Source: a virus. From it: 27,918 nt of DNA. The notes below the pieces were generated by a model. The model made no database searches, was not told the DNA's origin, and saw only the letters and a program-made list of their open reading frames with translations. The stretch is taken from UHGV virus genome UHGV-0137059. One strand, 5' to 3'. This document shows positions 22,341-25,325 of this stretch, piece by piece. Position 1 is the stretch's first letter. Every line of letters starts with the position of its first letter. Position numbers and translations under genes: made by a program.

Positions 22341-22457
22341 CACGCAAACAACAGAATAAACACTGCACTGTGTATTCATTCCAACGAGTGAATACACGGA
22401 GCAATGTCGCTCGTAACTAAACAGGAGTCGACTTGTTCTGATTATTGGAAATCTTCT

Positions 22458-22487
22458 TTGCCCTCCAGTATGAGGGCAATTTTTTTG
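22458..22487 (+). terminator. Strong intrinsic terminator/attenuator hairpin immediately upstream of the coiled-coil gene ribosome-binding site
   Basis: 8-bp stem TTGCCCTC/GAGGGCAA with 6-nt loop followed by TTTTTTT, then GACGGAGG ribosome-binding site and ATG at 22499. Confidence 0.65.
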
Positions 22488-22498
22488 ACGGAGGATAT

Positions 22499-23467
22499 AT
22501 GAGTGAAGTAACAGATTTAGTTGTTATTGAAAAAGCAAATGCAATGACTGTATTTCAGTCTGCCGACCAGATTGAAGAAATCCTTCAAAAGGTTGAACGT
22601 GAAGTTATGTCCTTTGTGCCTGATATCACAACGGCAAAGGGCAGAAAGGAGATCGCTTCTCTGGCGTATAAAGTTGCGCAGACGAAAACATATCTCGATG
22701 GTCTTGGCAAAGACCTTGTTGCTGAACTGAAGGAAATTCCAAAGCTAATTGATGCCAACCGCAAGACAGTGCGCGATCGCCTTGATGAACTGAAAGCCAA
22801 GGCGCGCCAGCCTCTTACTGATTATGAGGAAGAACAGGCGCGGATTAAAGCCGAAGAAGAAGCTAAGGCAGCAGCTGAAGCTCTCGCAAAGCAAATTGAG
22901 TCTGACCATGAAATAGCGATTTTGATGGATCGCGAATTTGACCGCCAAAGAGAAGAGGCAAGACTCAAAGCGGAGCAGGAAAAGCGAGAGCATGAAGAAC
23001 GCTTAAAAAGAGAAGCTGAAGAGAAAGCCAGAGCAGAAGCCGAAGCAAAGGCAAAAGCCGAAATTGAAGCAGCAGCAAGGCGAGAAGCAGAAGCTAAGGC
23101 CGCAGCGGAACGTGCAGAGCGTGAACGCATTGAAGCCGAGCAACGAGCACAGCGCGACGCAAAAGAGGCAGCAGAACGAGCTGAAAGAGAAAAGCAGGCA
23201 GCAATTGAAGCAGAACGCAGAAAAGCACAGGAGGAGGCTGAACGAATCCGGCGCGAGGCTGAAGCAAAAGAGCAAGCCAGAATAGCAGAAGAAAAAAGAA
23301 TCAAGGAAGAAGAAGAGCGTAGAGCAAAGGATAAAGCTCACCGGAAAGAAGTAAATAACAAAATACTTGCTGACCTTATCAAGGTTGGCGCATCAGAAGA
23401 TGTTGCTAAAAATATCATAACAGCCATCGTAAAAGGCGAAGTATTCGCAACAAAAATAACCTACTAA
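22499..23467 (+). CDS. Hypothetical protein (322 aa) with long central E/R/K/A-rich single-helix or coiled-coil region
   Basis: ATG at 22499 with GGAGG ribosome-binding site; about 130-aa N-terminal domain, about 150 aa of charged repeats (AEAEAKAKAEIEAAARREAEAKAAAERAERERIEAEQ...), short C-terminal domain; not recognised. Confidence 0.7.
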   Translation: MSEVTDLVVIEKANAMTVFQSADQIEEILQKVEREVMSFVPDITTAKGRKEIASLAYKVAQTKTYLDGLGKDLVAELKEIPKLIDANRKTVRDRLDELKAKARQPLTDYEEEQARIKAEEEAKAAAEALAKQIESDHEIAILMDREFDRQREEARLKAEQEKREHEERLKREAEEKARAEAEAKAKAEIEAAARREAEAKAAAERAERERIEAEQRAQRDAKEAAERAEREKQAAIEAERRKAQEEAERIRREAEAKEQARIAEEKRIKEEEERRAKDKAHRKEVNNKILADLIKVGASEDVAKNIITAIVKGEVFATKITY

Positions 23468-23927: not shown

Positions 23928-24016
23928 AGGAGTGCGGGTATGTCTTAATTTGTCCCGAGTCGAAGTATTAAATCAGCGTTACTTCCTTGGGCCATGTCCA
24001 TTCTGAGAACAATCAT

Positions 24017-24622
24017 ATGAGCAAAGAATTTTACGCAAGACTGGCAGCTATTCAGGAAAATCTGAACGCGCCCAAGAATCAGTACAACTCATTCGGTAAA
24101 TATAAATACAGAAGCTGCGAAGACATTCTTGAAGGCGTTAAGCCGTTACTGAATGGCCTGTTTTTATCAATCAGCGATGAAGTTGTGTTGATTGGTGATC
24201 GGTATTACGTGAAAGCCACGGCAACTATTACCGATGGCGAAAACAGTCATACGGCAACCGCCCTTGCACGAGAGGAAGAAAGCAAGAAAGGAATGGATTC
24301 TGCACAAGTTACTGGAGCTACAAGCTCTTATGCACGCAAGTATTGCCTCAATGGTTTGTTCGGCATAGATGATGCGAAAGATGCAGATACAGACGAGCAT
24401 AAACATCAGCAGAACGCAGCAGCAAAGCAATCAAAGCCATCACCTACACCTGAACAGGTTTTAAAGGCATTCACTGACGCAGCAATGCAGAAAAACACCG
24501 TGGAAGAGCTTAAACAGGCGTTCGCCAAAGCGTGGAAGATGCTCGAAGGCACACCGGAGCAGCACAAAGCGCAGGACGTTTACAACATCAGACGAGACGA
24601 ATTAGAAGGAGCGGCTGCTTAA
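24017..24622 (+). CDS. erf: Erf single-strand annealing recombinase (201 aa from ATG at 24017)
   Basis: MSKEFYARLAAIQENLNAPKNQYNSFGKYKYRSCEDILEGVKPLLNGLFLSISDEVVLIGDRYYVKATATITDGENSH... matches recalled P22 Erf. Confidence 0.9.
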   Translation: MSKEFYARLAAIQENLNAPKNQYNSFGKYKYRSCEDILEGVKPLLNGLFLSISDEVVLIGDRYYVKATATITDGENSHTATALAREEESKKGMDSAQVTGATSSYARKYCLNGLFGIDDAKDADTDEHKHQQNAAAKQSKPSPTPEQVLKAFTDAAMQKNTVEELKQAFAKAWKMLEGTPEQHKAQDVYNIRRDELEGAAA

Positions 24623-25005
24623 TGGCACATTCGATTACTGTAAGACTAAACAAACCCGCAAGAGAGTTTCAGGCCGGGGAAAATATCGGATTCAACATCC
24701 GTGCTGGCGTTCAGTATTACGATCGCCAGACAAAAAAGAAAGAATGGACAAACTACAGCGCCGTTGTATTTGCCAAGCCGGGAGCGCAAGCGGATTACTA
24801 CCGTAGTGTTCTTGTTGAAGGTGGCATTGTGGAAATTACCGGAGAAAACATCAGGGTTGATGTTTATCAGGGGCAAAATGGTCAATCAATCACTCTTGAA
24901 TTACTGAATGCAAAGATTGGATTTGCAGCTTCAGGAAATGGCCCGCAGCAGCAAAGTAGTAACCAGCAGAACACTCCTGTATACGACGATTCCATCCCAT
25001 TCTGA
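24622..25005 (+). CDS. SSB-like single-stranded DNA-binding protein (127 aa) with C-terminal acidic tip DDSIPF
   Basis: Start ATG overlaps erf stop (TAATG); OB-fold-like core, Gln/Gly-rich linker, C-terminus ...YDDSIPF like the E. coli SSB tail DDDIPF. Confidence 0.75.
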   Translation: MAHSITVRLNKPAREFQAGENIGFNIRAGVQYYDRQTKKKEWTNYSAVVFAKPGAQADYYRSVLVEGGIVEITGENIRVDVYQGQNGQSITLELLNAKIGFAASGNGPQQQSSNQQNTPVYDDSIPF

Positions 25006-25028: not shown

Positions 25029-25325
25029 ATGCCAGCGCCTCTGTATGGTGCGGATGACCCGCGCCGCTGTTCCGGCAATTCCGTATCGGAGGTGCTGGAA
25101 AATATCAAGAATAATCTCGACGCGTTTCTTGCTCTGCCACCAGAAACAAAAGAAGAACGGAAGTACCGACGCGATATACAACTCGCAGAAAAACAGGAAA
25201 AAGACCGAATAAACGAAACATCAATCCGACCATTCCGCAAAGCCACATATACCCACTTCCCTGAATATATCGACCCGCGCCTGCGTAATTACCGCTCACG
25301 CTATGGCGCTATCAGTAATGACTGA
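25029..25325 (+). CDS. abc2: Abc2 anti-RecBCD protein (98 aa)
   Basis: [22 protein letters not shown]...[11 protein letters not shown]...RYGAISND; length and termini match recalled P22 Abc2. Confidence 0.8.

Follow-up and report, generated by a model that had tools for sequence, protein, structure and literature searches.

The gene at positions 24622..25005 (+ strand) of the DNA that we analysed, a virus sequence of 27,918 nucleotides (in the following, the window), belongs to the known HK97 gp40 type and is thus not a new gene. We consider it likely that it encodes a gp40-lineage phage single-strand DNA-binding protein (SSB), which would coat single-stranded DNA (ssDNA), load the annealase Erf through its C-terminal tip and be able to use those host proteins that are partners of the SSB C-terminus (SSB-Ct). 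The protein most likely represents a compact branch of the bacterial SSB fold that has diverged strongly. Membership in the gp40 lineage, also named SSB-1b, is given by the identity to HK97 gp40, by a match to PHROG 44 and by the location of the gene in the slot between an annealase gene and abc2. An earlier note on this DNA, which was made from the sequence alone, had interpreted the gene in a similar way; that reading was largely right, and it had already been published as a prediction.

The gene, its start site and its neighbours

Most of a lambdoid E. coli phage or prophage, mosaic and P22-like, is contained in the window, which resembles E212, CUS-3, phiv205-1 and Sf6 over the structural, lysis and replication genes. 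The SSB-like gene is located in the early-left (PL) operon, between erf and abc2. The upstream gene erf (24017..24622, + strand) encodes a single-strand annealing protein of 201 aa (Pfam ERF, 2.4e-44) that is 75% identical to P22 Erf. In the ORF list this gene begins with TTG at 23987; however, the alignment with P22 Erf begins at M11 of the TTG ORF, and based on this comparison the start of erf is most likely the ATG at 24017. The next gene of the operon, abc2 (25029..25325, + strand; Pfam Anti-RecBCD_p2, 1.5e-44), encodes an anti-RecBCD protein with 71% identity to P22 Abc2. When scanning for regulatory signals, we found no promoter-like sites in erf, in the SSB-like gene or in the gap before abc2. 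From erf to abc2 there are two weak terminator-like matches compared to 2.9 expected from shuffles, one in erf (+ strand) and one in the SSB-like gene (- strand).

The coding sequence comprises 127 codons followed by TGA and is supported by the ORF call, the identity to HK97 gp40, the match to PHROG 44 and the ratio of nonsynonymous to synonymous changes (dN/dS). The earlier note had described an ORF of 127 aa with an ATG that overlaps the erf stop, and we can confirm this arrangement: the ATG (24622-24624) shares one base, A24622, with the TAA of erf (24620-24622), which results in the 1-nt stop/start overlap TAATG (24620..24624, + strand). Translation of the SSB-like gene is probably coupled to erf via this overlap. 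A Shine-Dalgarno-like AAGGAG, read from the sequence, is present in the 3' end of erf (24606..24611, + strand), 10 nt before the ATG, and may serve as the Shine-Dalgarno sequence of the SSB-like gene. A longer ORF with a GTG start (24532-25005) was rejected because the starts of the homologs correspond to the ATG at 24622; nearly all full-length homologs start with M-A/S-H-S/T-I/V-T or, one residue later, with M-H-S-I-T.

Comparison with moderately diverged homologs resulted in a dN/dS of 0.09-0.14 for the SSB-like gene. In distant pairs the synonymous sites are saturated, with pN still at 0.08-0.26. The SSB-like gene is thus a real coding gene under purifying selection. In phage mEp234, which is viable, an IS element interrupts the gene downstream of about codon 49; therefore, the gene is dispensable for plaque growth, which counts against our preferred explanation.

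The association with annealase genes extends across the family. Among 98 related loci, 89 have an Erf homolog as the adjacent upstream gene, and the two genes almost always overlap by the same single nucleotide; three of the nine loci that lack an upstream Erf are cut off upstream. Erf is also found upstream of distant relatives, namely in Edwardsiella phage GF-2 and in two metagenomic phage contigs. Elsewhere the neighbour differs: the Yersinia relative lies downstream of a Rad52/Sak-type annealase, the Leminorella relative downstream of a Sak4-like AAA_24 protein, and a few relatives have no recognisable annealase directly upstream. The linkage of the family to Erf is thus tight but not exclusive. 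The suggestion of the earlier note that the protein works with Erf is in agreement with the large majority of loci, whereas the loci with a Sak4-like, a Rad52-like or no annealase speak against Erf as the sole partner.

This genomic context also bears on the possibility that the protein is an SSB for theta or rolling-circle replication, in which case the adjacency to erf would reflect operon history only. The fold and tip of E. coli SSB recruit parts of the replisome, and the SSB fold and tip of the phage protein would do so too. Furthermore, some relatives adjoin no annealase. However, the gene resides in the PL recombination module and not in the O/P replication module across the immunity region, and the 1-nt overlap is near-constant with annealase genes of several different families. 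In addition, mEp234 represents a natural IS knockout in a viable phage. We thus regard a dedicated replication SSB as an unlikely explanation.

Predicted fold, DNA-contact positions and family

We modelled the protein with AF2 using 58 relatives (mean pLDDT 84.6, pTM 0.72). In this model, residues 3-103 (24628..24930, + strand; pLDDT of this block 84-97) fold into a beta barrel of OB topology that includes one helix, with strands at residues 3-8, 14-18, 21-34, 39-51, 69-74, 76-84, 87-95 and 98-103 and the helix at residues 55-63, and residues 107-127 are disordered. The earlier note had proposed an OB fold, and both the predicted barrel and its structural matches agree with this proposal. In a Foldseek search of the PDB, the best 50 matches are without exception SSBs (bacterial, mitochondrial or apicoplast) or PriB, with E between 1.2e-5 and 6e-4 and a probability of 1.0, and the matches in the viral structure library BFVD are phage SSBs. 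The fold similarity to the PDB matches is moderate, with a TM of 0.4-0.55 and an rmsd of 5-6 A, which counts against the protein being an SSB. By its predicted fold, the protein belongs to the SSB structural class.

PriB is found among these fold matches with an E of 2.4e-4. PriB proteins have no acidic C-terminal tail and are encoded in the cellular rpsF-priB-rpsR operon. We rejected an identity as PriB, as the phage protein has an SSB-Ct tail and is set in a phage recombination operon.

In E. coli SSB, W40, W54, F60 and W88 are the classical residues that stack on ssDNA. To these we assigned equivalent positions by an hhalign alignment with E. coli SSB (93% probability, residues 32-94 against 41-102), so that the pairing reflects this alignment and not the structure of a complex. 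W40 corresponds to Y32, which is Y in 57 of the 58 relatives and H in one, and W54 corresponds to W42 (W in 57, Y in one). F60 corresponds to F50, which is F in all 58, and W88 corresponds to Y82 (Y in 46, F in 12). The four stacking-equivalent positions are hence aromatic in 57-58 of the 58 relatives.

When comparing the protein to sequence models, we find that the curated SSB models do not pick it up. There is no Pfam match at E<=1, PF00436 included, and TIGR00621 'ssb' scores 13.5 bits compared to a cut-off of 53.95 (E 0.069); both results count against an SSB. The relative from phage GF-2 matches the Pfam SSB family with an E of 0.0028, which is below threshold. The protein does, in contrast, match PHROG 44, which is described as 'single strand DNA binding protein', at 2.9e-27. 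A PDB search with the single sequence of the protein returned nothing meaningful, and the best hit of a PDB search with the family profile was a Streptomyces SSB at an E of 0.52, which likewise counts against an SSB. PADLOC yielded no match for either the SSB-like protein or Erf.

The family is small and self-contained. At E<=1e-3, the family profile retrieved no more than 211 cluster representatives from 1.84 billion, and canonical SSBs were not reached. A locus scan of IMG/VR revealed near-identical copies only (97-100% identity); the diversity of the family is drawn from the genome scan and metagenome look-ups. Of 5,426 complete E. coli genomes, 579 carry the gene, which PGAP still annotates there as 'hypothetical protein'. 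Members of the family are called SSB by PHROGs and in some GenBank and JGI records. A firm SSB label would improve the annotation of prophages.

The C-terminal tip and the C-terminal module of Erf

The last residues of the protein, VYDDSIPF (residues 120-127; 24979..25002, + strand), form an acidic tip that resembles the SSB-Ct. The earlier note had pointed out the resemblance of the DDSIPF end to the tip of E. coli SSB, and this resemblance holds when the K-12 gene is fetched and translated. The phage protein ends in ...NTPVYDDSIPF and E. coli K-12 SSB in ...PPMDFDDDIPF; the two agree at five of the last seven positions, with Y instead of F at position -7. Position counts over about 150 relatives result in the tip consensus [FWY]-D-D-[DS]-I-P-F, which is the SSB-Ct consensus. 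Of 225 distinct relatives with a length of 115 aa or more, 152 end in P[FYW], and the exact host-type PPMDFDDDIPF is present in Edwardsiella phage GF-2 and in the Yersinia and Leminorella prophage homologs. The window contains 182 stop-to-stop ORFs with 60 codons or more, of which only this one ends in [DE][DE]x[ILVMP]PF. As the tip is rare in the window and conserved across the family, we conclude that the SSB-like tail is not due to chance. About a third of the relatives lack the IPF tip, which counts against an SSB; these are mostly marine or Vibrio-type proteins with Q-rich tails such as ...NFQQPR, or truncated or frameshifted entries.

Between the OB domain and the tip lies a disordered linker rich in Q, N, S and P (residues 104-119; 24931..24978, + strand; pLDDT <50 for residues 107-121). 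The mean pairwise identity among relatives is 0.67 in the OB domain, 0.32 in the linker and 0.63 in the last six residues. In the relatives, the linker has a length of 20-112 aa and consists of 36% Q and 13% P.

The similarity of the tip to that of the host might also indicate that the protein is a host-takeover decoy, which titrates SSB-Ct clients (RecO, ExoI, PriA, chi and others) or replaces host SSB on DNA and thereby steers repair and replication restart of the host in favour of the phage. This takes further the suggestion of the earlier note that the protein could compete with host SSB for RecO, ExoI or PriA. The close fit of the tip to the host SSB-Ct consensus, the exact host tail of some relatives and the neighbouring abc2, whose product hijacks the host RecBCD, are all consistent with such a function. 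On the other hand, the strict conservation of the stacking aromatic positions would argue for real DNA binding rather than for a free decoy. The same tip is retained in canonical phage SSBs, and its presence alone need hence not mean antagonism. In phage HK620, moreover, the tip of an SSB recruits the annealase of the phage itself. Because the DNA-contact positions are strictly conserved and ordinary phage SSBs keep the same tip, we rate the decoy lower than a gp40-lineage SSB and consider it improbable.

Our analysis shows the fold class, the conservation including that of the stacking positions, the disordered linker, the tip, the gene order and the purifying selection, whereas ssDNA binding, oligomeric state, contact with Erf and any role in vivo are inferred, along the following lines. 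The gene is transcribed in the PL operon, and the protein would be made together with Erf. It would then coat the ssDNA that arises during phage replication or through the action of RecBCD modified by Abc2, and its tip would hand the coated ssDNA to Erf, possibly via the three-helix module at the C-terminus of Erf. The same tip could let the protein use host proteins that read the SSB-Ct. The tip-dependent loading is proposed by analogy with an unrelated SSB that occupies the same slot in HK620.

The module comprises residues 146-201 of Erf (24452..24619, + strand) and is predicted to be a three-helix bundle (AF2 pLDDT 89.2). In the annealing domain, Erf of the window shares about 90% of its residues with P22 Erf, whereas the last ~45 residues diverge sharply. 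The module is common to annealases with four different Pfam cores, where it is found at the C-terminus with 33-48% identity. It is found with an ERF core in P22, mEp554, Vibrio phage BT-1011 and Serratia and Rahnella prophages, with a RecT core in phages Tyrion and TL-2011b, with an AAA_24 or Sak4-like core in Erwinia phage EhrS_59 and a Leminorella prophage, and with a Rad52_Rad22 core in a Yersinia prophage. A protein search with the 56-aa module retrieved near-identical fragments only.

It is plausible that annealases with this module have a host-type partner in common, and the SSB-Ct tip readily suggests itself as this partner; the module would then be a candidate docking domain that binds the SSB tip. 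The idea that the module is a portable SSB-Ct receptor, and that the gp40-type tip has been kept host-like so that a single adaptor on the annealase recognises the SSBs of host and phage alike, is a tentative one that we hold to be possible and rather less probable than its opposite. If it were true, a swappable code of tips and receptors would explain the free mixing of recombination modules, and recombineering systems based on Erf or Sak could be made portable between hosts. The portable annealase module is the part of this analysis that is most worth following up.

Two further observations concern the distribution of the module. A module specific to gp40-type SSBs was rejected, as some annealases that carry it have a canonical SSB gene downstream and others have no phage SSB gene there; the latter cases count against a handover of ssDNA via the module. 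In the two tip-less gp40 homologs that were examined, a tiny sample, the preceding Erf protein is without the module.

Published work is in general support of a tip-dependent handover: the compatibility of annealases with their host is decided by the SSB-Ct, and the C-terminus of Redbeta binds Exo and the SSB-Ct (both as cited in PMC13490951; also PMC12315714). When the model of the Erf module was compared to the PDB with Foldseek, there was no match with an E below 1, and the C-terminal domain of Redbeta was absent from the best 50 matches. As this search gave no significant match, the analogy to Redbeta is without structural support.

Comparison with known recombination modules

The closest counterpart is HK97 gp40, which has 94.5% protein identity and is essentially the same gene type. 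The DNA of erf and the SSB-like gene is 98.1% identical between the window and HK97, and the order of erf, the SSB-like gene and abc2 is the same. More generally, 46 phage records contain the complete block of erf and the SSB-like gene; most of them are 96-99% identical to it in DNA, and three Salmonella phage records are ~85% identical. Phages bearing the block include HK97, HK022, HK106, HK542, mEp043, mEp213, Sf101, CUS-3 and several Stx phages.

HK97 gp40 was named 'SSB-1b' in Genome Research in 2025 based on its AlphaFold 3 fold (PMC12315714). The same study describes the recombination module type 'HK75', which consists of an anti-RecBCD protein, an SSB and an annealase and contains no nuclease (PMC12315714); its main text makes no mention of the acidic tip or of the conserved aromatic positions. 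A 2026 preprint refers to the HK75 homolog Gp31 as still uncharacterized. To this published prediction, our analysis adds the stacking positions, the tip statistics, the size of the family, the IS knockout and the portable annealase module. These additions are incremental. The conceptual gain is small, because it is already established that phage recombination modules can encode an SSB and that SSB tips take part in loading annealases.

Compared to E. coli SSB, which represents the families PF00436 and TIGR00621, the protein is alike in the class of its OB barrel, in the four aligned stacking aromatic positions, in the disordered linker rich in Q, P and G and in the [F/Y]DDxIPF tip. It differs in length, with 127 aa compared to 178 aa, and the identity in structural alignments is 14-18%. 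In addition, His55 of E. coli SSB, a residue of the tetramer, is not conserved in the hhalign alignment.

In P22, the identical genomic position is occupied by abc1, which has the same 1-nt overlap with erf. This exact slot between erf and abc2 would fit a functional analog of Abc1 that acts with Abc2 on RecBCD and not on ssDNA. However, Abc1 has neither a Q/N-rich linker nor an acidic IPF tail, and relatives of the SSB-like protein are also present in phages without abc2. Homology to Abc1 was ruled out, as there is no sequence similarity between the two proteins (no local alignment at E<=100). We consider an analog of Abc1 to be very unlikely, and a gp40-lineage SSB remains our preferred explanation.

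A precedent for such an SSB is HkaK ('SSB-2') of phage HK620. Its gene has the same slot in a P22-like PL operon, in which the annealase gene is followed by the SSB gene and abc2. A homology of the two proteins was rejected, since BLASTP gave no alignment better than E 73, and the resemblance is one of position and tail only. HkaK has been experimentally proven to be the cognate SSB of Sak4 in HK620 (PMC5928155). HkaK depends on its final six residues, NDYPPF, both for bringing Sak4 to ssDNA coated with SSB and for stimulating annealing and recombineering (PMC5928155). Like the SSB-like protein, HkaK thus has a C-terminal tip, here of the xDxxPPF type; its partner annealase, however, is Sak4 and not Erf. 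The HK620 precedent suggests that co-expression of the SSB-like gene could raise the efficiency or portability of recombineering with Erf.

A candidate docking module at the end of Erf

The mechanical open reading frame for erf (window 23987-24622) starts at TTG 23987. Because the alignment with P22 Erf opens at ATG 24017 (MSKEFYARL...), the true product is probably 201 aa long. For its last ~55 aa (window 24452-24619, the 3' end of erf), a three-helix bundle is predicted; this C-module also occurs at other loci (L087-L090, L092, L100, L101, L102, L103, L104 and L105). There it sits at the end of annealases with four unrelated Pfam cores, namely ERF, RecT, AAA_24 (Sak4-like) and Rad52_Rad22 (33-48% identity). 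Downstream of these annealases we found a gp40-type SSB, a canonical SSB or no phage SSB. The C-module therefore looks like a portable partner-docking domain; a Foldseek search of the PDB returned no structural relative.

Two gp40 homologs on metagenomic phage contigs lack the IPF tip and end in ...NNNRG (L095 2433-3483) and ...NFNQPQR (L096 2393-3522). Both lie directly downstream of an Erf that has no three-helix C-module. With n=2 loci only, it is possible that the IPF tip and the C-module co-vary.

Neighbouring genes and a natural knockout

Upstream of the SSB-like gene, the same operon encodes a 340-aa protein (window 22445-23467, + strand) whose middle is long, repetitive and rich in E/A/K/R. 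It has no match in Pfam and matches only PHROGs without known function (phrog_1376 and phrog_21365); its homolog in phage mEp234 is annotated as 'TolA'. In a large group of Vibrio phages with a gp40 homolog, the overlapping upstream gene encodes a 193-aa protein that belongs to no known family (phrog_11517, no match in Pfam; L003 2420-3001 in Vibrio phage 1.144.O). It is preceded by a PDDEXK exonuclease and may be an unrecognised annealase.

In mEp234 (PV340539.1), an insertion with two transposase genes splits the gp40 homolog after about codon 49 (L106 2106-3400), and abc2 is apparently absent as well. This viable phage is thus a natural knockout of the gp40 homolog; it was scored as SSB-positive in a 2025 survey of Rec modules (PMC12315714).

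Tail variants compared with E. coli SSB

Clients of E. coli SSB read the terminal Phe carboxylate of its tail. Some phage SSBs, canonical and gp40-type alike, continue for ~15 residues beyond the ...DDDIPF tip, which would bury this carboxylate. Such extensions, which share the motif [AS]-x-[IV]-G-L-[QM]-[YFH], are found in phage mEp554 (L104 1974-2441), Vibrio phage BT-1011 (L105 1981-2529) and proteins P0126, P0156 and P0159. The exact host-type tail, (N)EPPMDFDDDIPF, ends the gp40-family proteins of Edwardsiella phage GF-2 (L002 3001-3399), of two Yersinia loci (L090 and L091) and of a Leminorella locus (L092). Their OB domains are nonetheless of the diverged gp40 type, which suggests that the tails were swapped with those of canonical ssb genes or else converged strongly.
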